This document shows, one piece after another, positions 2,788-47,327 of a stretch of 64,000 nucleotides of DNA. A program made the translations under genes and the position numbers. The DNA is from a virus. Lineage: Duplodnaviria > Caudoviricetes. Location: the IMG/VR virus record IMGVR_UViG_2859564202_000001; one strand, given 5' to 3'. Position 1 is the stretch's first letter. Every line of letters starts with the position of its first letter. Under the pieces are notes generated by a model, which saw only the letters and a program-made list of their open reading frames with translations, was not told where the DNA came from and did not search any database.

Positions 2788-2816
2788 AAAAACAACGACA
2801 GCAAAGCTGCGTTCGG
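2788..2816 (+). repeat. Dispersed hairpin element, copy 1
   Basis: AAAAACAACGACAGC-AAA-GCTGCGTTCGG; related copies at 3464, 7024 and 47299. Confidence 0.75.
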
Positions 2817-2883
2817 ATATATTCTCGAACTGCTGTAGTGCATACGCTACAGCCCGCTACCACCGTAAAAGCGAGAACATATC

Positions 2884-3363
2884 ATGACTGTTGATCTCTA
2901 CCAGGCACGCATTCCTTTTCAGCGCGATGGCGTGCGCTTTGATCATACGATGATCACCCACATTCAAGCCGGCCTGCATCTTGGTGGCTGCCGCGCAGCA
3001 GGTTTACTGCCTATACCAGCACATATTGATCATATTGTGCGCCTGACAGCCGCAGATTTCTATGACACCCAGTCAGCACCGCAGCTGCTCAGCAACACTG
3101 TGCTTGATGTATTGGACACCACCACTCAAGACTTGAAGGCATTGTGGCCTGTTGCAGAACATATTGCTACAACCATTCCTGAATCTGAGAACGTGCTTAT
3201 CCACTGCCAGATGGGTATCAACCGCTCAGCTGCACTCATGACACGGGTGTTGATGTTGCGCAACGATTGCACCGCCGATGAAGCAATTGCACTGCTGCGT
3301 GATCGACGCTCACCGTTTGTACTGTTCAATGAGCATTTTGTGGAACAACTTCGAGCACTGTAA
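2884..3363 (+). CDS. Dual-specificity/tyrosine protein phosphatase
   Basis: HCQMGINRS (CX5R) active-site motif. Confidence 0.9.
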   Translation: MTVDLYQARIPFQRDGVRFDHTMITHIQAGLHLGGCRAAGLLPIPAHIDHIVRLTAADFYDTQSAPQLLSNTVLDVLDTTTQDLKALWPVAEHIATTIPESENVLIHCQMGINRSAALMTRVLMLRNDCTADEAIALLRDRRSPFVLFNEHFVEQLRAL

Positions 3364-3380
3364 GCGCTCAAAGACCCATT

Positions 3381-3420
3381 ACCCCGTGAAGAGAACATTC
3401 TCTTCACGGGGTTCTTTTTT
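3381..3420 (+). terminator. Rho-independent terminator
   Basis: CCCCGTGAAGAGAA-CA-TTCTCTTCACGGGG followed by a T run. Confidence 0.8.
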
Positions 3421-3463
3421 CTTGCACGGGTGATGGTTGATGTGGGTGTCTGCGCAAGAAGAG

Positions 3464-3493
3464 AAAAAACAACGACAGCGAAGCTGCGTTCGG
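3464..3493 (+). repeat. Dispersed hairpin element, copy 2
   Basis: AAAAAACAACGACAGC-GAA-GCTGCGTTCGG. Confidence 0.75.
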
Positions 3494-3549
3494 GCGAATC
3501 GGCGATAATCACACACCACTCTTCCTGAGAGAATCCTGAGGTCATCACC

Positions 3550-4278
3550 ATGTCACCGAACTTCCAAGCTCGCGGTACTACTGCGCCCACTGTTGCTTTG
3601 TCCATGCGCCAGATCGCGCACATCCGTGAAGAAATTAAGAAATCACCACTCGCTGCTTCCGTTTTCATCACACCCACCACCAAACAAATGGTTGTCCGAG
3701 ATCTAGAATCACTGTTCCAGCAGCTCTACCACACAGATCTACCTGAACCATCCATCAAAGACAGTGGTCTTATCAGTGCTATCGGCTCTAGCGCCGGCAA
3801 TACCAATAATCCAGCACTCGCCCTAGAAACTCAGATGGCTTACCACCTGGTGCTTGCTATGCACCACACCGATGTTGCTACCTGGCACAAGGTGGTGACC
3901 AAAAACATCACCGAATCTGCTGCTGCACAAGATGCTGCGGTCGAGCACAGTGCTAAATACGATGCTGTGTACGATGCCGCACAACTTATGGGCATCACTG
4001 TTGAGGAAGGTAATGTCGGTAGCATCGCTATTGCCTTTAGCACAGCACGTGCAGACGGTAAATCTGATTGGTGTGTTTCCGGCATCAGCCGCTACATCGA
4101 GGTCACCGAAGCCTTGGATGCTGCGCGAGCTGTCACTAAAAATACTGCTGCGCTCAATAAAACTGCTCTACCAGACGTGCAGCCGGCGCCGGTTGTGCAT
4201 TCAGCACAGTTCATGAACAAGTCCGCACACGATCATGGGGTTAATACTGCGGAAAAAGATCAACCAACCCTGTTTTAA
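3550..4278 (+). CDS. Hypothetical protein
   Basis: 242-aa ORF with GAGG RBS and element-typical codon usage; no motif recognised. Confidence 0.75.
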   Translation: MSPNFQARGTTAPTVALSMRQIAHIREEIKKSPLAASVFITPTTKQMVVRDLESLFQQLYHTDLPEPSIKDSGLISAIGSSAGNTNNPALALETQMAYHLVLAMHHTDVATWHKVVTKNITESAAAQDAAVEHSAKYDAVYDAAQLMGITVEEGNVGSIAIAFSTARADGKSDWCVSGISRYIEVTEALDAARAVTKNTAALNKTALPDVQPAPVVHSAQFMNKSAHDHGVNTAEKDQPTLF

Positions 4279-4448
4279 AAGACTGTCCATTTAACAACCA
4301 CATCGTTACCCCCGAACAGTCTTTTAAAGGCTATTCAGGGGTAATTTTTTCGCCACACTCCCAATATCTACCAAAAATGGTGATCTATTATACATAATGG
4401 AATTACCAAAGCTTCATATCACTTTTCCACAGCCTGAAAGAACATACT

Positions 4449-5189
4449 ATGTCCGCAGCTTTACCTCACACAGCAGCAGATCCCGTACACACCACCCCAG
4501 CGAAACCGCTGCTCGATCATGTCTTAGATTCACTAGGACGCAGCATCATCAGTGGTGAAATGGAAGCCGGTAGCACATTCAAACTGCAAGACATCGGTGA
4601 AAAATTCGGTATCTCCCGCACCGTCGCCAGAGAAGCCATGCGTGCCTTAGAGCAACTTGGGTTGGTGGCCTCATCGAGACGAATTGGTATTACAGTGCTC
4701 TCGCACGAGCACTGGGCTGTCTTTGACAAAGCCATTATTCGCTGGCGCCTCGAAGATGAGCGTCAACGTGAACAGCAACTGCAGTCACTCACCGAACTTC
4801 GTATTGCCATTGAACCAATTGCTGCACGCAGTGTTGCCCTTCATGCATCGAGCGCAGAGATTGCTATCATCGGTGATCTTGCTGCACGAATGCGTAACCT
4901 CGGTGAAGCTGGTCGTGGCGCATCACAAGAATTCCTAGACGCAGATGTGAAATTTCATGAGCTTATTTTGCAGTATTGCCATAATGAGATGTTCGCTGCC
5001 ATGGCACCACCCATAAAAGCTGTACTAGTCGGGCGCACCACACTTGGCCTTCAACCCGATCGACCTGCCGAAGAAGTCTTGGACAATCATGATGCTCTCG
5101 CACACGCACTAAGTGTTCGTAATGCAGACCTCGCCGAAAAAGCATCCAGGAGCATTCTGAATGAGGTGCGCGACGCACTGACCTCGTAA
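4449..5189 (+). CDS. gntR2: GntR/FadR-family transcriptional regulator (gluconate regulator paralogue)
   Basis: N-terminal wHTH (FGISRTVAREAMRALEQLGLV) and FCD domain (DVKFHELI..HN); position matches gntR2 as recalled. Confidence 0.85.
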   Translation: MSAALPHTAADPVHTTPAKPLLDHVLDSLGRSIISGEMEAGSTFKLQDIGEKFGISRTVAREAMRALEQLGLVASSRRIGITVLSHEHWAVFDKAIIRWRLEDERQREQQLQSLTELRIAIEPIAARSVALHASSAEIAIIGDLAARMRNLGEAGRGASQEFLDADVKFHELILQYCHNEMFAAMAPPIKAVLVGRTTLGLQPDRPAEEVLDNHDALAHALSVRNADLAEKASRSILNEVRDALTS

Positions 5190-5221
5190 TTGCCACTAAA
5201 CGAGTCACTACACAATTACAT

Positions 5222-5357
5222 CGCTCATTGTTACTTAATTACCCTTTAATAGTCTTTTACAAGGCTGTTAAAGGGTAATTTTTTATTAGTTTGCTTAAAG
5301 CCTATTACATGACAATTACAGCACAATTGAAAAGTCACTTAAGCGCACGCTAAAAGC
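5222..5357 (+). repeat. Direct repeat copy A (terminator hairpin plus TTAA units)
   Basis: 5230-5287 is identical to 6879-6936 (58 bp); the downstream block ACAGC.CAATTGAA.AGTCACTTAA.CGCACGCTAAAAG is also shared; degenerate copy at about 4303-4349. Confidence 0.85.
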
Positions 5358-5555
5358 GAATTGTAGAGGGTTATTTTTTTCGCAATTAAAAGCCTTTTGC
5401 GACACAAATAGGACAACAAAACAAAGATGCATTAACTCTAAAAGAACAAAATTAATCAATCAGAAAAACATATTGAATACTTATAAATTTCTGACATACT
5501 CATTAATGAGATATTCGAAGTCTTTATCAAAATGATTAACAAAAGGAGTATGTTT

Positions 5556-6323
5556 ATGTCGCTAAAAACTCGCCGAATATTCGGCGCACTTGCTGTTTCG
5601 CTATCAATCTCTTTCTCAGCCATTGCTACACCTGCAGCATCCGCACAAGAACTAGTGGTGAGCACATCAGCAGTAAACGAATTTGGTGTAGTTACCAGTG
5701 ACATCACGGCTGAGCAAATTCTTCAGGCGCAAGATCTAATCGCTGAGATGAAACAGTCAGAGGACATATATGAGTATTTCGGTGCCTTGTCTGACGTTGA
5801 ACAGAGATCCATCATTGCAGCTGTAAAGGAAAATCCATATCTCATTGAGAACGAATCACCCCGTATGAGAGTCCAAAGTGAAACACCCGACGAGGAAACA
5901 CCTGATAAGAAAAAGCCGAGCAAAACCTACAAGCTCTATATGAGCATTCTCGAAATGATGTCATGTATCAATCTTGTTGATGTTCCGTCATGTGCCCAAG
6001 CCCTTAAAGCGGCAAATATAGCTGAACGCGAGGCCAAGGCCCGTTACCCCGATTCGGTCACTAATGGTAAAGGCGATGCCCTTCGTCATTGTGCATGGAG
6101 CGCTCTCATGACTATTCGAATCGGAAAAGATGCAGCCGAAAGAATTGGTAACGCTCATGAAACCGTTGTGAGAGGTGAACCCGAAGAAAGAGAAATGGAT
6201 CTCATCAATAACGCGCTGGGTAGAGACATCGGCGAAAGATTCATCATCAATGGCGATGAAACGGGTGCGCTCAGTACTTGTGTATCCATGGCTAATATCG
6301 GGCTACTTCATACTCTGTTGTAA
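5556..6323 (+). CDS. Secreted protein with DUF6973-like C-terminal domain
   Basis: Signal peptide ending ASA; GDALRHCAWSAL...AHE...EMDLINNALGR motif; AAGGAG RBS. Confidence 0.75.
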   Translation: MSLKTRRIFGALAVSLSISFSAIATPAASAQELVVSTSAVNEFGVVTSDITAEQILQAQDLIAEMKQSEDIYEYFGALSDVEQRSIIAAVKENPYLIENESPRMRVQSETPDEETPDKKKPSKTYKLYMSILEMMSCINLVDVPSCAQALKAANIAEREAKARYPDSVTNGKGDALRHCAWSALMTIRIGKDAAERIGNAHETVVRGEPEEREMDLINNALGRDIGERFIINGDETGALSTCVSMANIGLLHTLL

Positions 6324-6341
6324 ACAAAGGAAGTTTCTATC

Positions 6342-6800
6342 ATGAAAATCAAGAAATTCAGCATCACAGCGCTAGCCTCAGTTCTAATGCTCACGGGTTG
6401 CGCGACCAATCACAGCTCACCTCTGTACAGTTATCTGAATGCGTCAACATCAACCACTGTTGAACAAGTACGTCTCAGCGATCTTTACGGTGAGCAGTGG
6501 ACCGAGTTCGCTCTTGTCTGCCCCTACACCACAAAAGACGAGGTAAAAGAAGAGCTTGGTATAAAAATAAACACCTACCTCACCGATTCGACCGATGACA
6601 GTAGTAACGATATTGTGCTCAGGGATAAAGACGGTTCATATGATTGGATCTATTTCAACAGATTCGACATTGTGTACCTCTGCAACGGCTCAGCGGAAAA
6701 TCTAAAAATCTACCCCATTGATTCAGTTCTAGAATTTGAGCATAGAGACGACTACGGTACCTGGAAACTGAGCGCTATCACAGAGCCGGGTAATCAATAA
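6342..6800 (+). CDS. Lipoprotein
   Basis: Lipobox LTGC; AAGGAAG RBS. Confidence 0.8.
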   Translation: MKIKKFSITALASVLMLTGCATNHSSPLYSYLNASTSTTVEQVRLSDLYGEQWTEFALVCPYTTKDEVKEELGIKINTYLTDSTDDSSNDIVLRDKDGSYDWIYFNRFDIVYLCNGSAENLKIYPIDSVLEFEHRDDYGTWKLSAITEPGNQ

Positions 6801-6870
6801 TAACGCGGACACTTAAGTACCTTTTATCGGTCGATTAAGTGTCTACTGTTTATCCGCTACCAAACCACGC

Positions 6871-7028
6871 CGCTAATCGTTACTTAATTACCCTTTAATA
6901 GTCTTTTACAAGGCTGTTAAAGGGTAATTTTTTATTCGTTTGTTTTTGGGACCATTAAATGTCAATTACATGTCGAGTAAGTGACACTTACAGCGCAATT
7001 GAATAGTCACTTAAACGCACGCTAAAAG
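6871..7028 (+). repeat. Direct repeat copy B
   Basis: Matches 5222-5357 with about 23 bp extra (roughly two TTAA units). Confidence 0.85.
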
Positions 7029-7054
7029 ACAAATGACAGCGAAGCTGCATTCGG
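7024..7054 (+). repeat. Dispersed hairpin element, copy 3
   Basis: AAAAGACAAATGACAGC-GAA-GCTGCATTCGG. Confidence 0.7.
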
Positions 7055-7119
7055 ATACACACCTGAAGAACACTCTTCACCACTAGCATTCCACCAACGC
7101 CTCGGAAAGGGCTATCTCC

Positions 7120-7308
7120 ATGTCTGTTGACGATCTTTACGCTGTTGCTCTCGATACTCACACCGGTAAGCCTATCCCCTGCGTACTCTGTGAAAATGCT
7201 CCACAGATTGTTATCTACGATGGTTGCTGCTCGCTTGCATATACCCAAGCACTTGGCGATCTCGCCGAAGCGGAATACTACGGCGCCGATCTTGCTGCAG
7301 CTGCCTAA
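7120..7308 (+). CDS. Small Cys-rich hypothetical protein
   Basis: GAAAGGG RBS, CxxC, followed by a terminator. Confidence 0.6.
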   Translation: MSVDDLYAVALDTHTGKPIPCVLCENAPQIVIYDGCCSLAYTQALGDLAEAEYYGADLAAAA

Positions 7309-7327
7309 ACAAACTTCATAGAACGAC

Positions 7328-7380
7328 AAAAACCCCGCCTCAGAATATTGCACAACGCAATAGCTGAAGCGGGGTTTTTG
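7328..7380 (+). terminator. Terminator (A and T flanks, possibly bidirectional)
   Basis: AAAAACCCCGC...GCGGGGTTTTT. Confidence 0.7.
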
Positions 7381-18129: not shown

Positions 18130-18904
18130 ATGAAGACACAATCATACCGACAATTAATCGTGCCGATATGAGCTCTTAAAAGACAGCATAAAACGAGTTT
18201 TTCAAAAGCCTATTAAGTGTCAATTACGACGTGCATTAATAGATACTCAATCACCTTAAATTGTTGACACACTCCACTAAAACAGGTCTATTAAAAGACA
18301 ATTGAATTACGCCCTAGTAGTACTTGTTTCAGGCCACCACTTAGAAGGCTTTTAAGTATCCACTATGTATCAATTATCTAGAACCTTTAGTGACTTTGAA
18401 ACGGCAGTACTCTATTGGCTCTTAATGGTCAATTACATAACAATTATATTGAGCCTTTGAAACAACTCACTCTGCTGCATATTAAAAGGTCGATTAACTA
18501 ACGATTGAATTGATCCTTAAAAAGCCTTTATCTATCGCATTATGAATAAATATTTAATCGACCTTTAATAGTGACCTAAAAGCCTTTTAAAAGCCAACGC
18601 ATTCAGTGACTTTTAAAAGGCTATTAAGTGTCAATTGAATTGCCTTGTTACTGGCTTTTAAAAGGCTATTAAAGAACACTCCCCTATTGTCTTTTAATCG
18701 TCACTTAATCGACCTCTAAAAGGTAACTAATTGACTCTTGAGTGACACATATTTAATTGACCTTTAAGTAACGATTATAAGGCAATTAATGTGACCAAAT
18801 AAAGACACGTAACTGACTAATCTTTATCTGACTATTACAAGGCTTTAAAAGAGCACTTATGTGTCGATTAAGTGTCTACGCAATAACTGTGCTTTAAGAG
18901 GCTT
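18130..18904. repeat. Array of degenerate palindromic CnnTTAAnnG units, about 11-bp period (left part)
   Basis: e.g. CTATTAAGTG, CTTTTAATCG, CACTTAATCG, CGATTAAGTG, CTCTTAATGG in phased tandem. Confidence 0.85.
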
Positions 18905-18970
18905 GGACCTGACCCCCGGATGGTGGACACCTTGAAACAAGCATGATGCTGGGAAAGGTAATCTGCCACC

Positions 18971-19267
18971 ATGCCACGCAAGACCTACACAGAGGAGTTC
19001 AAGCGCGACGCTGTCGCGCTCTACGAGAACTCCGCCGGCACCTCGATCCAGAAGATCGCCAATGATCTCGGAATCAACCGAATGACCCTTAAAAACTGGA
19101 TTACTAAATACGGGGCCAACTCAACTCCACATGGCGCTAACACGGCCACCGCGCTGTCCGAAGCTGAACGGATCCGCCAACTTGAAAAGGAAAATGCACT
19201 CCTCCGCGAAGAGCGTGACATCCTGCGGAAAGCGGCCAAATATTTCGCGGAAGAGACGAACTGGTGA
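18971..19267 (+). CDS. IS3-family transposase OrfA
   Basis: Identical to 17310-17606. Confidence 0.95.
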   Translation: MPRKTYTEEFKRDAVALYENSAGTSIQKIANDLGINRMTLKNWITKYGANSTPHGANTATALSEAERIRQLEKENALLREERDILRKAAKYFAEETNW

Positions 19268-20160
19268 TCCGCTTCCGATTCGTTGATGACGCTCGAAAGA
19301 CCTACTCGGTTAAGCGGATATGTGACGTGTTGAAGCTCAATCGTTCCTCATATTACAAATGGAAAAGCACCGCCTTCACGCGTGAAAAACGCCTGCTCAG
19401 CGACGCTATTCTTGGGGTCCAGGTCAAGACTGTATTCACCACTCACAGTGGCTGTTATGGGGCCAAACGAATCGCGGCTGAACTCAAAGACCAGATCGGC
19501 CATGACCTTGCGAACCACAAGCGGGTTGCCCGGATCATGCGATCGTTGAAGCTGTTCGGATACACAAAGAAACGCAAGGTCACCACCACCGTGCCGGACA
19601 AAACCAAGACAGTGTTCCCTGACCTTGTCGGCCGGAAGTTCACCGCTGACAAGCCGAACCAGCTCTATGTCGGGGATATCACCTATCTGCCAATTCAGGA
19701 TGGGTCGAATATGTACCTGGCCACGGTCATTGACTGTTACTCCCGCAGGTTGGTGGGCTTTTCTATCGCAGATCACATGCGCACGAGCTTGGTCCAGGAC
19801 GCGCTGCTCATGGCTAAAGACCAGCGTGGAAACCTCAAAGGTGCGATTTTTCACTCCGACCACGGCAGCGTTTACACGTCTCATGCGTTTCAGGAGACGT
19901 GTAAGAAACTAGGGATCAGGCAGTCGATGGGATCAATTGGCACCAGTGCTGACAACGCTTTGGCGGAGTCTTTCAATGCCGCGATGAAGCGGGAAGTCCT
20001 GCAGGATTCCAAGACCTTTGAAAATCAATTGTGCTGTCGCCGGGACGTCTTCCGCTGGTGTACCCGTTACAACACGGTTCGCCGGCATTCCTGGTGTAGA
20101 TATCTGGCTCCGGTCGTGTTTGAGGAGCGCGGTCCTGCTATCCTGAGATCTGCTTCCTGA
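19264..20160 (+). CDS. IS3-family transposase OrfB
   Basis: Identical to 16417-17313. Confidence 0.95.
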   Translation: MIRFRFVDDARKTYSVKRICDVLKLNRSSYYKWKSTAFTREKRLLSDAILGVQVKTVFTTHSGCYGAKRIAAELKDQIGHDLANHKRVARIMRSLKLFGYTKKRKVTTTVPDKTKTVFPDLVGRKFTADKPNQLYVGDITYLPIQDGSNMYLATVIDCYSRRLVGFSIADHMRTSLVQDALLMAKDQRGNLKGAIFHSDHGSVYTSHAFQETCKKLGIRQSMGSIGTSADNALAESFNAAMKREVLQDSKTFENQLCCRRDVFRWCTRYNTVRRHSWCRYLAPVVFEERGPAILRSAS

Positions 20161-20197
20161 TCAAATCCTCCGTGTCCACCATCCGGGGGTCGGACCC

Positions 20198-20585
20198 CTT
20201 TAAAAACTACAATTGAATCGACCACTAATCGTTACTTAAATGACTATTAACAAAAGTCACTTTTAGAGCACCGCAAAAGCCTTTTAATGGTCACGCAATA
20301 AGCCTTTAAGTAACAATTAAATAAGTGGCTTTAAAATCACTACTGCAGCACGATTGAAAGGTAATTAGCGGTCGATTAAGTGTCAATTAATTAATAGTGA
20401 TTCAAAATCTCATTAAAGCGCAATTCAATTGACAGCTAATAAGCCCTTAAGTAACAAATACTTTATCCGTACTTTAAGGGCACGCTAAAAGCCTTTTAAT
20501 CGACATCTAATTGTCATAACGCTTCGATGCGCCCATGGGAATACACTTAGCGGTCGATTAAATGGATACTAAGTAGCAATTAGCC
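20198..20585. repeat. CnnTTAAnnG array (right part, split off by the IS)
   Basis: CTTTTAATGG, CGATTAAGTG, CTTTTAATCG and similar units continue after the IS. Confidence 0.85.
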
Positions 20586-35482: not shown

Positions 35483-37324
35483 ATGACCTCAACAACCCAA
35501 CCTGGCACAACACCTGAGCTCAGCGCAGACACTCATTCTGAGCCCTGGGATGTCGTCATCGAAAACACCCTTGAACCTTTTCAAAAAGTCGTTCGTCAAT
35601 TTATTATTGACCGCCCCTATTCCGGCATTTTCCTCACCATGGGTGGCGGCAAAACACTCACTACCCTCTCCGCATTGACCTATATCCAGCCACCTGGACA
35701 CATTCTGGTTGTCGCGCCTCTAAATATCTCTCGACTCACCTGGCCCGAAGAGGTTCGCAAGTGGAATATCCCTGTTAACGCAATCTCGCTGATCACCAAT
35801 GAGCGCGGCACCAAACTCACCCGCGCCAAACGCCTCAAACTCTATGAGGAAACAGCGACCACACCACCAACGCTGTATTACATCACCATTAATCTGCTCG
35901 AAGATATTGTCAATTACTTTGGTGATAGGTGGCCGTTTTGGACAGTCATTATTGATGAGTCACAGACAATCTCTGATATATCCTCCAAGCGCACTAGAGC
36001 GCTCTTTTCTGTGCGACCCTATATCGGCAGACTAATTCTGCTCACCGGAACCCCCAGCGCCAACAAGTTCGACTCCATTTACGCCCAAGTCGCAGTGCTA
36101 GATTATGGTGCCAGCCTGGGTGACAACATCGACGTATTCCGAGCCAGATGGTGTGCGCCCGACATTATTACCGATAAACAAGTGCGTCGCTGGAAGCCGG
36201 CTAACAAGCAGGCTGAAGCAGAGGTGTACCGCACTATTAGCCACCTGGTCATGTCTGCCGTCAACACGGATATTAAGCTGCCACCGCTGCATTTTGTTGA
36301 TCACGAGGTACACATGAGCGACGATGAGCACCGCGACTACGAGCTCTTCAAAAAGGACGCGGTGCTTGCTGCATTGCTCGATATGGCTGAAGAGAATGAG
36401 GGTGGCGAAGGCGCTGATGACACTGACGCTGCTGATTCAGCGACAACGACCCCACCTGCGTCATCACAGCCAACAAACCCTGCCATCCCCGCTGGACTGC
36501 TTCAGGCAATACAACAAACCCAGGACACCAATGGTCGCGCCATCGCGCCTGTGACCACAGCTGAACTTGATCATTTTGATGATCTGCCAGTACAGCGCCA
36601 AGAAGATCTTGGCACCTTAGTTGTTATCTCTGCTGTTCACGCAGCGACTCTGCGCATGAAACTGCTGCAATACGCAGGTGGTGCTGTCTATGTCGATCCA
36701 GAAGATTCTGCGCAGTCCCAAGACCTGGATGCCAGCACTGCACGTGATGTTATCGACGCTACCAACACCGCCATGACCACTATTACCTCTCGCCCCACCA
36801 TGATTGTGCACCTGCACAAGGTGCGAAAAGTCATTGAGATTTTATGCAACCCTGCACTCGGCGGTGAACCTGTCAATATCGACCAGGACGAGACCGGAAA
36901 ACAGGTGTACACACCCACCCCAACGCTTGTCGCCTATCGCTTTATCTCTGACAAAGAAATCCTGCTTCATTACCTGGCGCAGGCGGGTGTGCAGGGTGTG
37001 GAGGTTTTTGACGGGTCGCCTGACATGCTGAGCCGTTGGAATGCGGGACGCATTCCGGTCTTACTTTTGCAGCCTGCGTCTGCTGGTCACGGCTTGAATT
37101 TCCAGCACGGCGGGCATCGCTTGGTGTGGTACAACCTGCCCGATAATAACGAGCATTATATGCAAGCGAATGCTCGTCTACATCGCATTGGTCAAAAGAA
37201 TCCCGTGACCATTCACCGCATTATTACCGCTGATACTTATGATGCGAATATGCCGGCGATTCTGGCCGGTAAAGCAAATAGACAGCAACGTCTCATCGAC
37301 GCCGTGCGCCGTGATCCAGTCTAA
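35483..37324 (+). CDS. SNF2-type SF2 helicase
   Basis: MGGGKT, IIDESQ, LTGTP, GHGLNFQ, QANARLHRIGQ. Confidence 0.9.
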   Translation: MTSTTQPGTTPELSADTHSEPWDVVIENTLEPFQKVVRQFIIDRPYSGIFLTMGGGKTLTTLSALTYIQPPGHILVVAPLNISRLTWPEEVRKWNIPVNAISLITNERGTKLTRAKRLKLYEETATTPPTLYYITINLLEDIVNYFGDRWPFWTVIIDESQTISDISSKRTRALFSVRPYIGRLILLTGTPSANKFDSIYAQVAVLDYGASLGDNIDVFRARWCAPDIITDKQVRRWKPANKQAEAEVYRTISHLVMSAVNTDIKLPPLHFVDHEVHMSDDEHRDYELFKKDAVLAALLDMAEENEGGEGADDTDAADSATTTPPASSQPTNPAIPAGLLQAIQQTQDTNGRAIAPVTTAELDHFDDLPVQRQEDLGTLVVISAVHAATLRMKLLQYAGGAVYVDPEDSAQSQDLDASTARDVIDATNTAMTTITSRPTMIVHLHKVRKVIEILCNPALGGEPVNIDQDETGKQVYTPTPTLVAYRFISDKEILLHYLAQAGVQGVEVFDGSPDMLSRWNAGRIPVLLLQPASAGHGLNFQHGGHRLVWYNLPDNNEHYMQANARLHRIGQKNPVTIHRIITADTYDANMPAILAGKANRQQRLIDAVRRDPV

Positions 37325-37447
37325 GACCGGCACGATCGCACCGTTATAGCTAATCAGCACCACCTACAACACCACAAACACACCCCAATCAGCATGATCG
37401 TGCCGGTTGGGGTGTGTCTTATCCCCTAAGAAAGTGACACCTTTACC

Positions 37448-37825
37448 ATGTCAGACCACGACGCCCCACAAACACCGATCCCCAAGGGGTTTTGGCAGCA
37501 GATCGACCACCAACTCGATCGCCTCGGCACGCAGCGCCCAGAGACCTTCGCAGCACTGCGTGACATTTTGCTTGATCCTGCCTACACCGCCATTGTTCAT
37601 GACCGTAATCGCTACGGCGTTGTCACCTTTGACACCAACTCAGCCTTCTTCTCAGGCTCTGGCGGAGACAACGGCTTAGCCGACGTACTCATTAACTGTG
37701 ATTGGCGCATGACTGACTACCGCGCCGAGTACTACTACGTCATGACACATAAATACACCAAGGAATCGTTTACCTATATCGAGGGCGACGTGAAACGCGG
37801 CGACCTCATCCCGCCTAATAATTAA
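37448..37825 (+). CDS. Hypothetical protein
   Basis: 125-aa ORF with element-typical codon usage. Confidence 0.7.
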   Translation: MSDHDAPQTPIPKGFWQQIDHQLDRLGTQRPETFAALRDILLDPAYTAIVHDRNRYGVVTFDTNSAFFSGSGGDNGLADVLINCDWRMTDYRAEYYYVMTHKYTKESFTYIEGDVKRGDLIPPNN

Positions 37826-37836
37826 GGACAACCGCC

Positions 37837-38175
37837 ATGACTCAGATCGCCATGTATCTCGCAGGACCCATGACAGGTATCCCTGAATACAACTACCCCA
37901 CCTTCCATGCAGCGGCTAATAAGTTCCGTGCAGCTGGCTACACCGTACTCTCCCCCGCTGAAGACGAATATGAATCCCAGCTCACTGCACCATTGCCTGA
38001 GAACGCTGAGCACAAATACGACCACTACTTGCGTCTCGGTATCGAAAAGCTGCTCAAGGCTGATGCTGTCCACATGCTTCAGGGATGGCAGAGTAGCGCC
38101 GGTGCCACTCTTGAGCACGATATTGCACAGAAATTGAGGCTTGCCATTACCTATGAAGAACCACCAGCATCCTAA
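37837..38175 (+). CDS. DUF4406-like protein (nucleoside 2-deoxyribosyltransferase fold)
   Basis: YLAGPMTGIPEYNYPTF..VLSPA..ADAVHMLQGWQSSAGATLEH. Confidence 0.8.
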   Translation: MTQIAMYLAGPMTGIPEYNYPTFHAAANKFRAAGYTVLSPAEDEYESQLTAPLPENAEHKYDHYLRLGIEKLLKADAVHMLQGWQSSAGATLEHDIAQKLRLAITYEEPPAS

Positions 38176-38294
38176 GGCGCCTCCGGCATAGCGTAAACCC
38201 CCACTGAGCAACAATCTCAGCGGGGGCGATCATGAATTAATGTGCTGTCTCGATATTTACCTCTAGTGCCGTTCAACAATTCTCCACAGGGCTC

Positions 38295-38645
38295 TTATTC
38301 GAAAGGAATGCCTTCTTTTTCGCAGTACTCTTTGTACGCGTCGATGATTTCCTGTGGCACGATACCACGTTGACCAACGGCCATGTCATTGTCAATAGCC
38401 CACAAACGCGCCTTACGGTGCAGCTCTGCATCTACAGATCCACGACGGATCTGGCGTGCAGATTCCTCACGACCAATCTTGATGACTTCTTTGAGCGTGA
38501 TCATATCGAGCTCAGTATCAATGTCGTCACCATTAAGGTCCACTACATACTGTTTACCCTCGTAGACCACGCCTACAGAGACGACATTGGTGATGCGCTC
38601 ATGTGAGACATCAGATGTGTATTCGACCGACTGAATAATGGCCAT
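38295..38645 (-). CDS. cgpS: Lsr2-like xenogeneic silencer CgpS
   Basis: Lsr2 N-domain (YTSDVS..YEGKQYVVDL) and C-domain (RLWAIDNDMAVGQRGIVPQEIIDAY) with RGI AT-hook-like motif. Confidence 0.9.
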   Translation of the reverse strand: MAIIQSVEYTSDVSHERITNVVSVGVVYEGKQYVVDLNGDDIDTELDMITLKEVIKIGREESARQIRRGSVDAELHRKARLWAIDNDMAVGQRGIVPQEIIDAYKEYCEKEGIPFE

Positions 38646-39279
38646 GTCCATAGTCCTAACCAATCATGTAATAAATGTAATAACTTAGTGTCACATAATA
38701 CTACATAATTTATTGTGTTTAGGTTATGTCAAAGTTATTGACATACTTTCTTAAAGCTCGTGATTGAACATCTAGCTAGATAAAAAACTTCTTTCATCAA
38801 GCCTTTTCTTCACTAGTTGCTCTTATTCTCCATTAAATCACTAAATTACCTAATAATGCAATCTAATCGACTCTTATTGGTCAATTAAGTGTCAATTAAA
38901 GGAATTTTCTTAGGCTTAATGAAAAGTACTGTCGCATATCTACTTTTAACTACGACACCAATACCTACAGCGAAACTGTTTAATAACCTAAATAACGACA
39001 CCACTTCGACAAAAACAATAATAAAGTCATGTCATTTTTTAGTCGCAGCGTGCGCACACCATAGTGGGACCTGGTAGGGCTCCCACGTCTACGCTCAAAC
39101 GCGCGCAAGTACGCTCACGCACACTGTAGCTACACAGACGACCAGTTAAAGCACAGTCAATCCGCGGATACCACCAGCATAGGCACACGCCGGCAGTGAT
39201 GCACCGCACTTGAGAAAAATAAATCATCTCAAGAAACAAACTAATACGTTATTATTGTAATTTAATTAGAGAAAAGAAA

Positions 39280-39900
39280 GTGACTTTTAAAGTGCTTATT
39301 CGCATCGCCGAGCATCAAGGCCGGCTCCATGTCCATAGCCCCTACTCAAAGGCTTTTGCCGCCCGCGCTCGAAAGCTCAACGGTCTCTGGTCACCCGAAA
39401 CGAAGACCTGGCATTTCAGCCCCGATAAAGAACAACCGGTGAGACGCGCACTCAAGGATGTCTACGGCTGGGATGAATTCACCACACCCGAGCTATGCAC
39501 GGTGCAGCTCACTGTGACCCCAGAGGCAGTGCTCAACAAACACACACTCACCATCGCTGGTGTTACACTTCTGAGCCGTTTACGCAGAAATTACTCGGTG
39601 TGGTTGGGTGATAATGTCCGCATCATCAGTGGCAATTTCCCAGAAGCAGCAGGATCACCCCAGTACCCCCTCATCATGGGTGTGAAGGCTCAACCCGTTG
39701 TTATCCATGTGCAGGAATTCCCTGTAGATGCTGTTTCGACTATTCCCCCGCGATTTAATCCTATTGTTATCACTGCACCGCCGAGCATTGATATTGCTGC
39801 TCTTCGAGCTGAACGCGAACAGCTCACCCGACGCATCAGCGAAATTGACAAGAAAATCGCACGTGCTGTGCATCCAACCATTCAGACTGAGGCTGCCTAA
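39280..39900 (+). CDS. Hypothetical protein
   Basis: SPYSKAFAARARKLNGLWSPETKTWHF N-terminal motif of phage/ICE-type proteins; C-terminal coiled coil. Confidence 0.7.
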   Translation: MTFKVLIRIAEHQGRLHVHSPYSKAFAARARKLNGLWSPETKTWHFSPDKEQPVRRALKDVYGWDEFTTPELCTVQLTVTPEAVLNKHTLTIAGVTLLSRLRRNYSVWLGDNVRIISGNFPEAAGSPQYPLIMGVKAQPVVIHVQEFPVDAVSTIPPRFNPIVITAPPSIDIAALRAEREQLTRRISEIDKKIARAVHPTIQTEAA

Positions 39901-39902
39901 TA

Positions 39903-40442
39903 ATGATGCAGACTCTCAAGCGGAAAATTCCGCTCATCTCATGCAATGACCTCAAAGAAGTGCAGTTACTTTTTCTTAAAGGTCAGATGCACACAGTCGG
40001 CTACAAGCTAGATACCGATCTTCGCAAGCTCACTAATACCGATGTGCTTGATCTTATTAACGCGCTCTTCGGCACCACTGTGACCAGCGCAGATGACGAA
40101 GCAGCAGATTTCATTGACTCTGATCCTCAGTTTGCAGTGCTCGTTGAGCTGGCCTACCACGACTGTGCACGCCGCGCTGCCATGGGTCTATCCAGGGTAC
40201 AGCAGCTCATCTATGACAATGCGGCTAAATCAACCTACTACCGCAGCGTCGCAGCTAGACATCGCAAACACATCCGTGAACTCCACGAGCAAACACAGCG
40301 AGATGGTATTCACTTCGACAACCCGTTGTCTCGTGCAGTCATCAACGATCTCAGCATGTCCATGAACCGTGCTCGACTAAACCGCATCGCTTCATGGAAA
40401 TCAGCCGGCGTACAGCGCTATCTCAACCCCACTATCTCTTAG
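39903..40442 (+). CDS. Hypothetical protein
   Basis: Tightly coupled ORF in the operon. Confidence 0.7.
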   Translation: MMQTLKRKIPLISCNDLKEVQLLFLKGQMHTVGYKLDTDLRKLTNTDVLDLINALFGTTVTSADDEAADFIDSDPQFAVLVELAYHDCARRAAMGLSRVQQLIYDNAAKSTYYRSVAARHRKHIRELHEQTQRDGIHFDNPLSRAVINDLSMSMNRARLNRIASWKSAGVQRYLNPTIS

Positions 40443-40473
40443 AACCACACACAACCAAGAAAGCAGTCACTAC

Positions 40474-41004
40474 ATGACCACCTCATCACCCCTTAAGTCC
40501 AAAAATTCCCTTAACGGCGCGCAGACCACATTTGTCCGCAATTGTGTTGCAGACGGCCCAACCGAGGTAAAAGCCACCATTGATGCACGTGGCGGTATCG
40601 AACAGCTCCGTGACAATGAGATTTCACAGCTCCCCGACAAGCTGTGGTTCAATAGCGCAACCTCCGCATCCAATGACGAGTTCACCACCGATAACATCCG
40701 ACTTGGGTTGCTCTACAACATGGCACTGAATAAGGCATCGGCTCATCGCTATGAGCTTGCTGCCCGCTGGTACGCCATTGTTAGCCCTCAGCCATCGCAA
40801 GAAGCTAGCCACAAGCGCATCGCGTCCTGGCACCTTACCCAGCTGCACGCACTGGTGACCCTATCTCGCACCCTAGGGGTCATCATTCCTGGTGATGAGA
40901 TCGACGCTCTAGCGCAGTCTATGGAGAATGCTCGTCAAGTTGGCACCGAGAATTGGTCCACTGTCACCATGCGCACCTACGTGACCAACCGCAAGGCATC
41001 CTAA
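40474..41004 (+). CDS. Hypothetical protein
   Basis: 176-aa ORF in the operon. Confidence 0.7.
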   Translation: MTTSSPLKSKNSLNGAQTTFVRNCVADGPTEVKATIDARGGIEQLRDNEISQLPDKLWFNSATSASNDEFTTDNIRLGLLYNMALNKASAHRYELAARWYAIVSPQPSQEASHKRIASWHLTQLHALVTLSRTLGVIIPGDEIDALAQSMENARQVGTENWSTVTMRTYVTNRKAS

Positions 41005-41753
41005 TGACTCGCGATATTTTCCACGAGGCTGCAAAACTCATCGCACACCTGGGGTGGAGGGACGCTTTTCCAGCACTACAGCGCACTGACCCAGCGCCAA
41101 CACATGCTGTGCCGATCAGGGCCTTTGATCTCAAGGCGGGCGCCGTCATCACCGATGAAAATCGAAGCAATGCTTATATCTATGACACCCTTGTCATCAC
41201 GCAGCCATATAAGCACGAGTTACCTCATCAAAACACCCACCCTTTTGAGTGGGCCCTGGAACAAATTGCCACGCTTGATCCGGCGTTCTCGATCAAGCTC
41301 GATCGCTCAGTGACCGTCCCTGAAATTGGACTCTACGCCCGCACACTGCATGACCTTAATACTCGGCATCAAGACTTCTTGGCACAGCGCAACGCCATGT
41401 TGCTTGTTGTTGCCCGTCGTGGTGTTGATCCAAAAAATATCGCAGACGTACTTGGTTTAACCACCAATCAGATACATCGGATTCTCAGTGCTACTCCGGC
41501 TGATTCCCCTACTGATTTAGGCGTTAACCCCGCCACAACAATGGGTGATGTAGTGAGGTTTATCAAGAAACGTCGCACCACTATGCAACTACGCGGCACC
41601 GCTGTCCGTGCACTGCTCTATCACGGCCTTACGCCGGCAGTCATCTCCCGACTAAGCGGCATGTCGCGTGCGGGTGTCATCAACGCAGCCAAGGCATTCC
41701 CCACCACCATCAACCACAAGGTCAAGAAAAGAAAGCAGCACTTCCATGTCTAA
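41004..41753 (+). CDS. Protein with two C-terminal HTH motifs
   Basis: PKNIADVLGLTTNQIHRIL and PAVISRLSGMSRAGVINAA; TAATG overlap. Confidence 0.7.
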   Translation: MTRDIFHEAAKLIAHLGWRDAFPALQRTDPAPTHAVPIRAFDLKAGAVITDENRSNAYIYDTLVITQPYKHELPHQNTHPFEWALEQIATLDPAFSIKLDRSVTVPEIGLYARTLHDLNTRHQDFLAQRNAMLLVVARRGVDPKNIADVLGLTTNQIHRILSATPADSPTDLGVNPATTMGDVVRFIKKRRTTMQLRGTAVRALLYHGLTPAVISRLSGMSRAGVINAAKAFPTTINHKVKKRKQHFHV

Positions 41754-42374: not shown

Positions 42375-42378
42375 GCAC

Positions 42379-42418: not shown

Positions 42419-42435
42419 AACCCTCTACCACTACA

Positions 42436-43014
42436 TTACTGTATCGCAGCAGCAAGTTCCTGCTCAGTCGGAATCGCCAATGGCGTGCCTGCATAGATCA
42501 GGTCTGGATCAACAAGCTTGTTGCGATCAATGATCAACCCAACCGGCACACCACTGTCCTGAGAAATAGAGGACAAGGTTTCGCCATTCTCAATGACGTG
42601 CACCGTACCTGGACGGGCAGGTCCTGCGACAGCATCAAGTGCTGATACTGGTGTGTCACCGTTGCCGGTAATGGTCAAGGTGGGGTCGGTCGGAGCCGTT
42701 GGCTCTTGAGCACTGTCGTGCTCACGGGGTTCTTTGTGATCTGAGTCTGCGCCTTCGGCGGTGCCTGTGTTGCTGTCAGCATCACTGGCGTCAGATGAAG
42801 AAGGATCGTGAACCTTCGTGACAATTTCGGTTTCTGTCACGACCTGATTTTTTACCTCGTCCTGTGGCTCGACGACGGCCACTGTATTGACATCACCACC
42901 GCCTTGGGCGAGAAAGGTCACGCCTGATCCACCTGCAATAACGGCAGCAGCAATAAACGCACCTGCTGCCACACCTGGTACTCGATTTTTCGGCATTGCG
43001 CCTTTAATCGCCAT
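42436..43014 (-). CDS. Membrane-anchored/secreted LysM-domain protein
   Basis: C-terminal HVIENGETLSSIS..NKLVDPDLIYAGTPLAIP; N-terminal TM segment. Confidence 0.9.
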   Translation of the reverse strand: MAIKGAMPKNRVPGVAAGAFIAAAVIAGGSGVTFLAQGGGDVNTVAVVEPQDEVKNQVVTETEIVTKVHDPSSSDASDADSNTGTAEGADSDHKEPREHDSAQEPTAPTDPTLTITGNGDTPVSALDAVAGPARPGTVHVIENGETLSSISQDSGVPVGLIIDRNKLVDPDLIYAGTPLAIPTEQELAAAIQ

Positions 43015-43184
43015 GTTCGTTTGTCCTTTACCTTTACCCGTTTAATGTTCCCTGGATACTACAAATTAAACTCTAGTATCTTATTAATTTCTGTTACTAT
43101 TAACATATAGGTTTTTTAAAGTTTCGTCTACATAAACCTGCAACAGAAATCACTACACCCAGTTCTCGAAAGGCTTTTTCTCTC

Positions 43185-44408: not shown

Positions 44409-44560
44409 CAACCAGCACAACCCTTAGACCCCAGACTCGCATTTTGCAGGGTTTGGGGTCTTTTTTCACCAGGGTCGAGGCGCGGTCTGTGTGCCCACCT
44501 CGACCCACTTTTCGCCCACCACTTTTCGTCAACCTACCAACAACAAAGCCCAGGTCACTT

Positions 44561-45841
44561 ATGGTCAACCCTTTTCACACGCTTGATAACTCACCGTTTG
44601 ATCCGGTGGCACAGTTTCCTGCGTTTTATCACAACCCGCTTATCAATCACTTGGGCCGCCGTCGCGCCTGGACAATCTCAGACATCAACAAACGCCCCAT
44701 CAATGTCCAACAGATGCTGACCACGGCCACCTACGGTAGCCCCGTTATTCATGGTGCCCGCATTGAAGACGCAGCAACCTCCCTACTTACCCTGGATGAA
44801 CTGCGTACACAGATTCCCACCGCTGCCAACAATGCGTTTTATCTCGATGCTGTCCAAGATGGCTGTCTTATTTTAGATATTGAAAAAACCTGTCCCCCCG
44901 AGGTCGCAGCCACACTACTCACGCTCTCCCCCACCGCCTTTTACACAGAGGTGTCCATGAGTGGTCGTGGCTATCACCTCGTTATGCCGATACCAGAGAA
45001 TTTTGCAGCGTTTCCTGCCGTACACAACAAACCCAGTATCAAACACCCCAAGCGCTGGTTCGAAATTCTTACCTCACAGTGGATCACCTTCACCCGACAA
45101 CCAATCCCAGAGCATGTTCTCCATCACAGTGAATCTGCTAACACAAGTGCTGTGCCATGGTTGAATGATCAACCACTTACATGGGAAAACGTCTTTGCAG
45201 ACTTAGCTAAAACTGTTGCACCCAACTTAAAAACCGGTGCCGGACTTACCATCACACCCAATGCACTGATGCCACCAGATCTCAGCGATGCTGAGCGCAT
45301 TCGCGACGATGAAGTCATCGACTCGACCTGTCGATTATTTGCCGAACATTACTCGAAAACACTTGCGGACTTCTATGATGATGCATCCCGGTTCGAGTTC
45401 AGCCAAATTGGTGTCATTATCAATCTACTGCTCCCCACTATGAGGATGCATCCCACCACGATCAGTCTCGACAAACCCATCAACTCCGATCACATCATCA
45501 GACTTCTGTTCGCTGTCGCTACTCGCGTGATCACTCACCGCAGCAAACATGATGAGGAGCGATCTGGCGTTCCGTATCTGATGTATCAGGTTATTTCCTG
45601 CCTTGACATGCGAGAACACCCCGACAATGGCGACTACCGTGTCGTACCCTCCCGGCATAATAGAGACCAACACAGCAACAACCCCTCAGCTCATGTGGTC
45701 CACCAACAACCACAACCCCAGCCCAGCGCAGCAGATTCGCCACATCACTACCGTGCACTACCCCAAGAAAACACGGTGTCCGAACACAGTTTTAAAATCT
45801 ATAACCCACCAGCCACACCCCCTCTAGGAGGTGAAAATTAG
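44561..45841 (+). CDS. Archaeo-eukaryotic primase (AEP/Prim-Pol) family protein
   Basis: K.P motif (NKRPIN), hhhDhE (LILDIEK), YTEVSMSGRGYHL, downstream FEIL; helical C-domain with DASRFEF. Confidence 0.75.
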   Translation: MVNPFHTLDNSPFDPVAQFPAFYHNPLINHLGRRRAWTISDINKRPINVQQMLTTATYGSPVIHGARIEDAATSLLTLDELRTQIPTAANNAFYLDAVQDGCLILDIEKTCPPEVAATLLTLSPTAFYTEVSMSGRGYHLVMPIPENFAAFPAVHNKPSIKHPKRWFEILTSQWITFTRQPIPEHVLHHSESANTSAVPWLNDQPLTWENVFADLAKTVAPNLKTGAGLTITPNALMPPDLSDAERIRDDEVIDSTCRLFAEHYSKTLADFYDDASRFEFSQIGVIINLLLPTMRMHPTTISLDKPINSDHIIRLLFAVATRVITHRSKHDEERSGVPYLMYQVISCLDMREHPDNGDYRVVPSRHNRDQHSNNPSAHVVHQQPQPQPSAADSPHHYRALPQENTVSEHSFKIYNPPATPPLGGEN

Positions 45842-45850
45842 ATTTATTAT

Positions 45851-45888
45851 TAAAACACTTGTTCTAAACATAAGGAACGCGCTACCAT
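45851..45888 (+). promoter_or_regulatory. Candidate SOS (LexA) box overlapping a sigmaA-type promoter
   Basis: TAAAACACTTGTTCTA vs actinobacterial consensus TCGAACAnnTGTTCGA; TTGTTC-N18-TACCAT. Confidence 0.5.
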
Positions 45889-46246
45889 TCATAGTTAGTG
45901 GGCATTCCGCCCCATAACAAACAGTAGAAAATTAAGTAGCACAGCATTGTAAATGTCGGGGAAACAAAATTATTCAACACTTTTCCAACTAATTGTTGAT
46001 ATGCACACTTTGTCGAACAATTACAGGAGCTACATGCACTTTTACATTTTCTATCAGCTTGTTATTAGTAATTATTTATCTGATTAAAATATCGGAGTTT
46101 ATTTATGTGATTTGACCGGTAATTGCACAATAAAGTAATAGTTAATTACTAGGTATAGCAACGGATTAAATAATCACTATAATTAATTCTTTCCGTACTC
46201 ATTTTAATCACTACCTATTCACCACTTGAACGGAGCGTTTTTCGCC

Positions 46247-46822
46247 ATGTTGAAATTCCGCATCATCTCCACAGTCACTACTGGATCTCAGCCAACTCCA
46301 CGAAAAAGCTGGAGCCACCCCGACACCACTCTCCTGGTCACCATGGTCACTGCACCATCGCTGTGCTCAGCCATCAACGTGTGGAACGCAACTGAGCGTA
46401 TTCCCGCTCAAAAAATCCTTAATGTCGAAGAAGTACACGTTCTTGGTGAGTGCAGCGACGCCATCATCTCTACGTCACTAACCAAAAAGGACAATCCGCA
46501 CGCACTTGTGCCCGATGATTTCGACCAAATCGGCGATGTGTTTGGCTATGCGCAAGACAATGTAGCTGTTTTTGATGTCATTGTCGCAGCACTGGGCGGT
46601 GCTGGTTATGGCCTGCTACCCGGACTGGTCATGCACCACATTGATGAGCACACCGTTGCACTTGTCTTTGATACTGATTCCCCTACTGGGACGCATATCC
46701 TCGGTGAGCGCTGCGTGTACTCCGACATCATTCACATGACTGACGATAAGTCTGCCCGTGGCTGGGGTGCAGTCATTGCCATAGCACGAGCCATCATCCT
46801 CAAAGTCGAACAGATCATGTAG
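46247..46822 (+). CDS. Hypothetical protein
   Basis: GGAG RBS; 191 aa. Confidence 0.7.
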   Translation: MLKFRIISTVTTGSQPTPRKSWSHPDTTLLVTMVTAPSLCSAINVWNATERIPAQKILNVEEVHVLGECSDAIISTSLTKKDNPHALVPDDFDQIGDVFGYAQDNVAVFDVIVAALGGAGYGLLPGLVMHHIDEHTVALVFDTDSPTGTHILGERCVYSDIIHMTDDKSARGWGAVIAIARAIILKVEQIM

Positions 46823-47022
46823 TACCCCACCATGACTCACTTGATTCACCACAATCGACCGCCCGTACCAGCATCACTACCTGTGCACGTGCAGAACCAG
46901 ACCTGCTCTCCGCCCATTATGAGCAGGTCTATGTCATATCTACCCACACTATTTTCTTGACCCAACGAAATGTGAATCACATTCTCTTCTCCACACACCT
47001 CGCATAAGAAAGAACACTTATT

Positions 47023-47205
47023 ATGGCTAAAGAATTCGAATTCACCATCCCTGACCAACATAATCGTTTACCGCTTATTTACCTGGTCGCAGCACGCACA
47101 ATCACCAGCGCTCGCACTCAGCTTCGTGCTGAACTCGATCAGGACGACCCCGATTTGCTCTCAAGTATCGACATTGATGCGCTCCCCTACGTCATCGTCG
47201 AGTAA
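47023..47205 (+). CDS. gip: Small protein, probably the gyrase inhibitor Gip
   Basis: 60 aa (about 6.8 kDa), in the position I recall for cg1978 just before the MoxR ATPase; assigned by size and synteny, not by motif. Confidence 0.6.
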   Translation: MAKEFEFTIPDQHNRLPLIYLVAARTITSARTQLRAELDQDDPDLLSSIDIDALPYVIVE

Positions 47206-47298
47206 AGGCGTTTCTTTTTCTCCCCCTGTGGTCTGACCTGTCAGGCAGTCAGGTTGGTTGATTTTTTCTGGCGGTGGCTGCATGGTGCAGCGTCAGTG

Positions 47299-47327
47299 AA
47301 AAGACAACACAGCGAAGCTGTGTTCGG
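47299..47327 (+). repeat. Dispersed hairpin element, copy 4
   Basis: AAAAGACAACACAGC-GAA-GCTGTGTTCGG. Confidence 0.7.

Follow-up and report, generated by a model that had tools for sequence, protein, structure and literature searches.

A covarying hairpin unit in front of genes of the Corynebacterium glutamicum element CGP3 and of related conjugative plasmids: a candidate DNA-hairpin promoter

To our knowledge, no promoter is known for the class of single-chain two-barrel RNA polymerases. The promoter of YonO of SPbeta has been stated to be undetermined (PMC5467207), and NCgl1702-like enzymes have been described as being without the flap insert that binds sigma (PMC7824862). The GNA hairpin of the phage N4 promoters belongs to the template strand, on which +1 is positioned 5' of the hairpin (PMC4496689). 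This paper describes a hairpin unit that is repeated in a stretch of 64,000 nucleotides (nt) of DNA (IMG/VR record IMGVR_UViG_2859564202_000001; hereafter the window), which represents part of the element CGP3 of Corynebacterium glutamicum. An earlier note on this stretch had drawn attention to four copies of the hairpin, and had proposed that these are either priming signals for the element's own candidate primase of the AEP family or the mark of a regulon of early genes. These remain the two leading models, of which the regulon, in the form of a promoter, is favoured here: we consider it an even chance that the unit is a DNA-hairpin promoter of an element-specific early or establishment regulon, probably read by cg1995, the RNA polymerase of the element itself. 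No published description of the motif was found in the literature on CGP3, NCgl1702, cg1995, and pGKT2.

All four copies in the window are located on the + strand, with the CAGC-RAA-GCTG core starting at positions 2799, 3476, 7037, and 47310 (Table 1), and the A-rich tract, the stem, the core, and the TTCGG that follows were recovered in each of them where the earlier note had placed them. The outer arms read AACG/CGTT in copies 1 and 2, AATG/CATT in copy 3, and AACA/TGTT in copy 4; an A is bulged out between the outer and inner stems in copies 1-3, and copy 4 is unbulged. The distance of some 57-170 bp to the following gene that had been given for these copies agrees with the 68, 57, 66, and 170 nt measured from the end of TTCGG to the start codon for copies 1-4, respectively. 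A constituent that is absent from that first description is a YGA trinucleotide, which is positioned exactly 10 nt 3' of the CGG in all four copies; the copies beyond the window and the related units of plasmids are absent from it as well. The downstream octamer said to be shared by three copies was likewise retrieved as CACTCTTC, of which the window contains four matches, three being located in the leaders of motif-bearing genes (copies 2, 3, and 4). These boxes are found 33-49 nt 5' of the start codons and bear a loose likeness to a boxA-like pyrimidine box.

The unit spans approximately 45 bp, outside of which conservation ends, and is composed in CGP3 of an A-rich tract, a stem of 8-9 bp with a C-RNA-G triloop, CGG, 10 nt, and YGA. 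An alignment of 37 copies from three genomes (G001, G515, and G661, described below), which was used to build a covariance model, is gapless, and the CGG-N10-YGA spacing is without indel. A perfect outer stem of 4 bp is formed in 34 of the 37 copies when the bulged and unbulged registers are both allowed; this two-register count replaced a fixed-register pair count on the covariance-model alignment, which understates covariation because bulged and unbulged copies differ in register. Seven outer arm sequences were encountered (AACG, AATG, AACA, TGTG, ACCG, AGCA, and ACAG), and a variant right arm is present at about 12 independent loci, 9 of which are fully compensated on the left. For example, an orthologous pair with a double change carries AACG/CGTT at 1804024 in G001 versus AATG/CATT at 1944151 in G515. 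The loops are always R-N-A (GAA, ACA, AAA, ATA, GTA, GCA, or AGA), and the predicted DNA fold of the hairpin ranges from -4.8 to -7.6 kcal/mol. In an alignment of 45 sites from four elements (CGP3 and three plasmids, see below), the sole invariant columns are GC, the loop A, and GC, such that the conserved mini-hairpin of the earlier note is recognized again as a GC-RNA-GC core. The two variable inner pairs of these 45 sites are paired in 97% of the cells, with 20 double changes and 0 one-sided changes, a covariation that was reached by 0 of 500 shuffles. Together with the outer stems and their compensated arms, this sustains the proposal that structure is under selection. Moreover, the 5' arm repeatedly contains an unpaired base: in CGP3 this is the bulged A, and on the plasmids either T or C is bulged out or an A.C mismatch is present.

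Among the non-Watson-Crick cells, G.T accounts for 4 of 30, about its chance share, in a count that is biased because the plasmid sites were picked with a Watson-Crick-only rule. The lack of G.T enrichment and the R-N-A loop closed by C.G fit pairing in DNA rather than in RNA, and thereby bear on the improbable alternative that the unit is an RNA-level element of the 5' leader, bound by an element-encoded protein and acting on stability, translation, or antitermination. The hairpin is indeed found on the sense strand upstream of coding regions, and its TTCG can pair with a downstream CGAA; in the G001 copy at 1,977,623, the right arm and TTCGG can instead pair with the downstream CGAACACAGCTT, which is followed by a T-rich run, to form an alternative terminator-like helix that is not seen at other copies. 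However, one-sided changes of the G.U type amount to 0, an Rfam search of the window returned 0 matches at the gathering score, and no motif-containing leader is present in the published leader table. Furthermore, no promoter or conserved sequence precedes the unit, and in many cases only 15-45 nt separate the copy from the T-run of the intrinsic terminator before it, which leaves no room for a separate promoter.

The window aligns with G001 (3,309,401 bp; probably C. glutamicum ATCC 13032) from 1,809,332 onward. Published gene coordinates and those of the open reading frames (ORFs) in the window differ by constant offsets, of +1,810,803 before and +1,809,507 after an insertion sequence (IS), as was checked on cg1938, cg1977, and cg1995 and on the predicted terminators of cg1931, cg1932, and cg1937; therefore, the window represents the left-centre of CGP3. 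The IS region itself (18,901-20,201; approximately 1.3 kb with one ORF for a transposase of 298 amino acids) is absent from G001 and from the BX927147 coordinates. A pattern search of G001 with an 18-mer gave 13 forward matches and 2 weak reverse ones, and 0 in the reversed control. The covariance-model search that the earlier note had suggested was run on the whole of G001 (3.3 Mb) and returned 16 copies, all on the + strand and all within 1,789-1,982 kb, which is CGP3, besides one marginal match elsewhere (E=0.19). The possibility raised at the outset that copies are equally common on the host chromosome is at odds with the finding of 16 copies in CGP3 and none in the remainder of the 3.3 Mb. 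A structural scan of 260 kb for a GC-RNA-GC hairpin with CRG and YGA at the proper offset detected 12 sites, all of them on the + strand; the reversed or complemented controls gave 0. Neither the covariance model nor the structural scan found a copy on the - strand of CGP3 or in its oppositely oriented conjugation block. The recurrence of the hairpin unit is far beyond chance.

Among 300 other Corynebacterium genomes, the family was encountered only in G515, which contains a CGP3-like element with about 19 copies on one strand only, and as a remnant in G661, where a 4-kb fragment enclosed by two IS copies contains ssb and three copies of the unit. The latter region (1,013,877-1,019,561) comprises approximately 4 kb with ssb, the three hairpin units, and pieces of other CGP3 genes between inverted IS copies; it looks like a composite-transposon-like remnant, in a host that is without a CGP3-like polymerase. 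A search for the exact motif in 185,579 species genomes yielded one chance match.

Table 1. Hairpin units and associated features in the window.
Feature	Position	Strand	Composition	Context
Copy 1	2786..2829	+	A-rich tract; hairpin 2794-2813 (AACG[A]CAGC-AAA-GCTGCGTT); CGG 2814-2816; CGA 2826-2828	Upstream of cg1932 (dual-specificity phosphatase, 2884-3363); after cg1931 terminator 2640-2677; covariance-model score 58 bits
Copy 2	3463..3506	+	Hairpin 3471-3490, loop GAA; CGG 3491-3493; CGA 3503-3505	Upstream of cg1934 (3550-4278); preceded by intrinsic terminator 3379-3414
Copy 3	7024..7067	+	Hairpin 7032-7051 (AATG[A]CAGC-GAA-GCTGCATT); CGG 7052-7054; TGA 7064-7066	Upstream of cg1938 (7120-7308); outer arm compensated C>T / G>A
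Copy 4	47297..47340	+	Hairpin 47306-47324 (AACACAGC-GAA-GCTGTGTT), 8 bp without bulge; CGG 47325-47327; TGA 47337-47339	Upstream of MoxR-like (47497-48756), VWA (48850-50706), and Clp/Hsp100-like (50728-52695) genes
CACTCTTC box	3517..3524	+		cg1934 leader; also 7071-7078 (cg1938 leader) and 47450-47457 (MoxR leader)
cg1995, 3' end	63342..64000	-	Single-chain beta/beta'-like RNA polymerase, 2169 amino acids	Gene continues past window end

Three plasmids were compared with CGP3, namely pGKT2 (Gordonia), pGS01 (Rhodococcus), and one plasmid of Streptomyces. According to local tblastn, CGP3 and the plasmids have in common a conjugation block of topoisomerase, lysozyme, MobL relaxase, coupling protein, and polymerase, and the block that fills most of the window, encoding RecJ, PriP (without a match in pGS01), a 1263-amino acid protein, SNF2, the AEP candidate, MoxR, VWA, Clp, and UvrD, is also found on the plasmids. 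The synteny covers nearly the whole gene content of the window from 22,000 to 57,300 and of G001 from 1,869 to 1,958 kb. Since this backbone is shared with the plasmids almost entirely, the core of CGP3 is an integrated pGKT2-like conjugative plasmid, and the 'prophage', judged by its gene content, is largely an integrated plasmid of this kind. The homologue of the coupling protein in CGP3 is encoded outside the window (G001 1,882,473-1,894,659) and aligns with its pGKT2 counterpart as three pieces that lie apart; the gene thus seems to be interrupted, in which case CGP3 would be transfer-defective. A protein encoded at the left edge of CGP3 (G001 1,778,114-1,779,418), which from its position may be the actin-like AlpC (cg1890), is 53% identical to a pGKT2 protein (5,523-6,935).

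On the plasmids, the covariance model gave only marginal scores (E 0.1-0.7), and the architecture of the unit is shared. A scan of the plasmids required at least 6 paired positions out of 8 in the stem, an R-N-A triloop with a closing C.G pair, and CRG and YGA at the CGP3 offsets. In pGKT2, the - strand yielded 9 sites, of which 8 fall into 8.6-22.6 kb, and the + strand yielded 2 (controls, 0 and 2); in pGS01, the - strand yielded 12, of which 9 fall into 43-76 kb, and the + strand 5 (controls, 2 and 1). On the + strand of the Streptomyces plasmid, three tandem sites are present at 591,435, 591,477, and 591,524 and one more at 597,692, and the 45 kb around its polymerase gene contain no site. 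The enrichment emerges only when hairpin, CRG, and YGA are required together; with a plain 11-mer, the plasmids gave no more matches than the reversed control did. The sites are mostly on one strand and co-oriented with the genes, and the arm sequences differ entirely between elements while their pairing is kept.

The position in front of particular genes is conserved as well. Two or three tandem units are located directly upstream of ssb in CGP3, pGKT2 (where the ssb product is 34% identical to that of CGP3), the Streptomyces plasmid (ssb annotated at 591,641), and the G661 remnant; in pGS01, two tandem sites (73046 and 72959) precede an ORF of 153 amino acids at the corresponding position, a candidate ssb by that position. 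Similarly, copy 4 in front of the MoxR gene has positional counterparts upstream of the MoxR homologues on pGKT2 and pGS01. The hairpin feature is real, structured, and element-specific, and it is conserved across elements of Corynebacterium, Gordonia, Rhodococcus, and Streptomyces.

These comparisons also bear on two further readings. According to the first, which we regard as very improbable, a dimeric regulator would bind the unit in duplex DNA as a palindromic operator, which would overlap a promoter of the host polymerase. The left arm resembles a -35 box (ACGACA or ATGACA), copy 1 has a TATATT at the right spacing, and a Staphylococcus plasmid with a distant homologue of the polymerase contains a dispersed palindrome over a sigma-A-like promoter. 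However, a protein that recognizes the half-sites one by one would not be expected to bring about symmetric covariation, the R-N-A loop is asymmetric and only one arm has an unpaired base, there is no conserved -10 box, and the arms differ between elements yet stay paired. The Staphylococcus plasmid (S. aureus NZ_CP150776) shares the MobL relaxase, the coupling protein, and the distant polymerase homologue with CGP3, and contains no GNA-triloop unit. Its palindrome is a different one, TAGTGGYTGY-loop-RCARCCACTTAG with a covarying centre, and is present in six copies (35,843-41,330 and 46,685), five of which are located 37-39 nt before the start codons of an ssb-containing block and overlap a sigma-A-like -10 box. 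The second reading, of intrinsic terminators or insulators against leftward (- strand) transcription, is scarcely plausible: read on the - strand, the CGP3 copies do consist of a hairpin followed by a T-rich run, but the A-tract is not conserved on the plasmids and the T-run is missing at most plasmid sites. Besides, CRG, fixed spacing, YGA, and loop identity play no part in termination, and no - strand genes are located upstream of the sites.

In CGP3, about 16 genes have a hairpin unit in front, and each copy is co-oriented with the gene that follows, even where - strand genes are interspersed. For these interspersed genes, which carry no motif, the published table gives 5' ends of the host type as well as CgpS peaks. 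The signalled half of CGP3 consists of co-oriented, mostly small genes, ssb, and the MoxR-VWA-Clp operon, with one unit before most genes or operons; the membership of this operon in the marked gene set, as claimed in the earlier note, follows from copy 4 being directly upstream of it. The G of YGA is mostly located 35-95 nt 5' of a start codon with a Shine-Dalgarno sequence (full range, 23 to approximately 160 nt). No TAnnnT -10 box is conserved between CGG and YGA in the 37 copies, and the bases that would form a -35/-10 pair vary with the stem. Promoters for host sigma factors (sigma-A, extracytoplasmic function-type, and sigma-54) were rejected, as spacings and boxes misfit and the would-be boxes vary with the stem; readings as attC-like, origin of transfer (oriT)-like, or repetitive extragenic palindrome (REP)-like sequences were rejected on copy number, gene-proximal position, and restriction to the element.

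The shape-conserved hairpin, asymmetric loop, rigid spacer, Y-R step, location behind terminators and a leader's length away from the start codon, presence of a single unit for each gene or operon in one co-oriented part of the element, and lack of sigma boxes all point to a promoter that is recognized by its structure. The hairpin would form in DNA, either by extrusion from the supercoiled duplex or, where the DNA is single-stranded, following transfer or in the course of replication, and would be recognized through its shape and a few fixed bases rather than by a sigma factor. RNA synthesis would begin at or near the G of YGA and run into the gene 35-95 nt downstream. The likeliest reader would be cg1995, the single-chain two-barrel RNA polymerase of the element, whose class has been described as being without the sigma-binding flap insert and which displays weak, sub-threshold matches to the catalytic domains of Rpb2 and Rpb1. 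Homologues with 37-45% identity over >80% of the length are encoded by the three motif-bearing plasmids, and the polymerase is thereby present in all four elements. No homologue of cg1995 was found in 50,697 phage records, and among 401 genomes of the same family polymerase homologues were found only in G001. Pfam detected no T7-type polymerase domain on the large ORFs of the window, in a scan that covered part of the CGP3 ORFs. The strong host-type, CgpS-silenced 5' end of cg1995 after induction would allow a two-step cascade, in which cg1995 is itself transcribed from a promoter of the host type and its product in turn would serve the hairpin units. More tentatively, and with less than even likelihood, the unit could represent the first promoter class for NCgl1702-like polymerases, a sigma-free DNA hairpin that has converged on the GNA solution of the unrelated N4 virion polymerase and drives an establishment regulon of ssb, MoxR-VWA-Clp, and many small genes in a family of actinobacterial conjugative elements, to which CGP3 would belong as an integrated representative.

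Several observations weigh against the promoter reading or its assignment to cg1995. Published Cappable-seq data obtained after mitomycin C treatment contain no 5' end within 500 bp upstream of cg1938, in a table in which cg1995 displays a strong mitomycin-induced 5' end; this means that the signal is not active on duplex DNA after such treatment, or that it is no promoter. A hairpin promoter of this kind may be active only on single-stranded or strongly supercoiled DNA. An uninduced data set likewise contains no 5' end or leader with the motif, in a condition in which the prophage is silent. In G515, the orthologue of the polymerase (2,017,098-2,023,612; 94% identity) reads as two overlapping open frames split near residue 1840, which is either a frameshift or a natural split, and G661 retains its three copies without a polymerase, though as an IS-flanked remnant. 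The AEP candidate, PriP, RecJ, SNF2, MoxR, and UvrD co-occur with the motif just as the polymerase does, the plasmid collection contains no polymerase-free relative, and the MobL relaxase is found only on the same three plasmids. As the backbone is inherited as a whole, co-occurrence cannot tell which enzyme reads the signal, and the specific link to the AEP that the earlier note had drawn is not supported for the same reason, the AEP candidate, PriP, and the RNA polymerase all being part of this conserved backbone. Finally, unlike in N4, it is the coding strand that bears the stable R-N-A loop, and primase signals classically have their start site 3' of the hairpin on the template strand, an arrangement that would suit the + strand just as well.

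This geometry leads to the other model, the chief rival, which we deem unlikely, in which the units resemble single-strand initiation (ssi) or single-strand origin (sso) signals: the R-N-A hairpin would form on the transferred or displaced + strand, and a primase (the AEP candidate or PriP) or the RNA polymerase of the element would prime at the Y of YGA and copy leftwards, making the incoming segments duplex. In known primase signals, a fixed start site follows the hairpin on the strand that bears the loop, as it would in the units, all copies are on one strand, with the stable GNA-type loop on that strand, the complement in CGP3 would yield a short RNA ending in a hairpin and U-run, and the AEP candidate and PriP co-occur with the motif, except for the missing PriP match in pGS01. 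Moreover, the relaxase is of the MobL type, the family to which the pLS20 relaxase presumably belongs as well, and in pLS20 it is the non-template strand of the establishment genes that is transferred (PMC8708921); with a relaxase that acts in the manner of pLS20, transfer could thus involve the coding strand. However, each element has its copies in one part only, where they cluster by gene, and neither the replication genes, about 40 kb in the same orientation, nor the conjugation block of 90 kb contain any, which would be odd for general priming. The distance to the start codons is promoter-like, and the tandem copies are located upstream, not downstream, of ssb; primers from these copies would not make ssb duplex because the copies sit 5' of it.

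The defined 45-bp unit, with its distinct stem, loop, spacer, and candidate start site, makes the promoter question for single-chain two-barrel RNA polymerases directly testable in vitro, with a model organism and a self-transmissible plasmid at hand. If the units are promoters, CGP3 would have a second transcription regime beside the CgpS-silenced one of the host polymerase, and the expression of many + strand genes without recognizable promoters would be explained. Actinobacterial conjugative elements would thereby gain an establishment regulon comparable to the leading regions of F-like and pLS20-like plasmids, based on another principle. If the priming model holds instead, the units would constitute a new, multi-copy single-strand initiation signal.

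Among known systems, EGeRS of the pLS20 family is comparable in being a conserved sequence that is repeated upstream of establishment operons of conjugative plasmids. It acts via antitermination at the RNA level or via a repressor, is much longer, and has no sequence or structural similarity to the hairpin unit. The RSF1010 signals ssiA and ssiB and the origin of phage G4 consist of a hairpin with initiation a few nt 3' of it on the template strand, as would the units under the priming model; these signals occur once or twice per origin, whereas the unit described here is present in many gene-proximal, gene-co-oriented copies. Frpo and ssi of F and ColIb-P9 are strand-specific folded DNA upstream of ssb and establishment genes of conjugative elements, as the units would be, and signals of the Frpo type have been proposed to act before or while the duplex is made. 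In contrast to the long imperfect hairpin of Frpo, which rebuilds -35 and -10 boxes for the sigma-70 enzyme of the host, the unit has a stem of 8-9 bp and no boxes, and is present about 10-16 times per element.

The analogy with N4 that had been drawn in the earlier note stands for the loop type and fails for the geometry. The N4 hairpin is on the template strand, whereas here the loop is borne by the coding strand, with CRG and YGA as its partners 3' of the hairpin. Furthermore, N4 carries a T7-like enzyme in its virion, whereas the reader proposed here is the single-chain two-barrel polymerase of a conjugative element, and N4 has 3 such promoters versus about 16 units in CGP3. Despite these differences, both systems employ a short-stem DNA hairpin with a loop of 3 nt that has a 5' purine and a 3' A and is closed by C.G, with which 45 of the 45 sites aligned here comply, and in both the variable stem bases matter for pairing only and the distance to the start, predicted here at YGA, is fixed. 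Finally, N4 transcription is functionally linked to SSB (PMC4496689), and ssb is the most heavily signalled gene in the elements described here.

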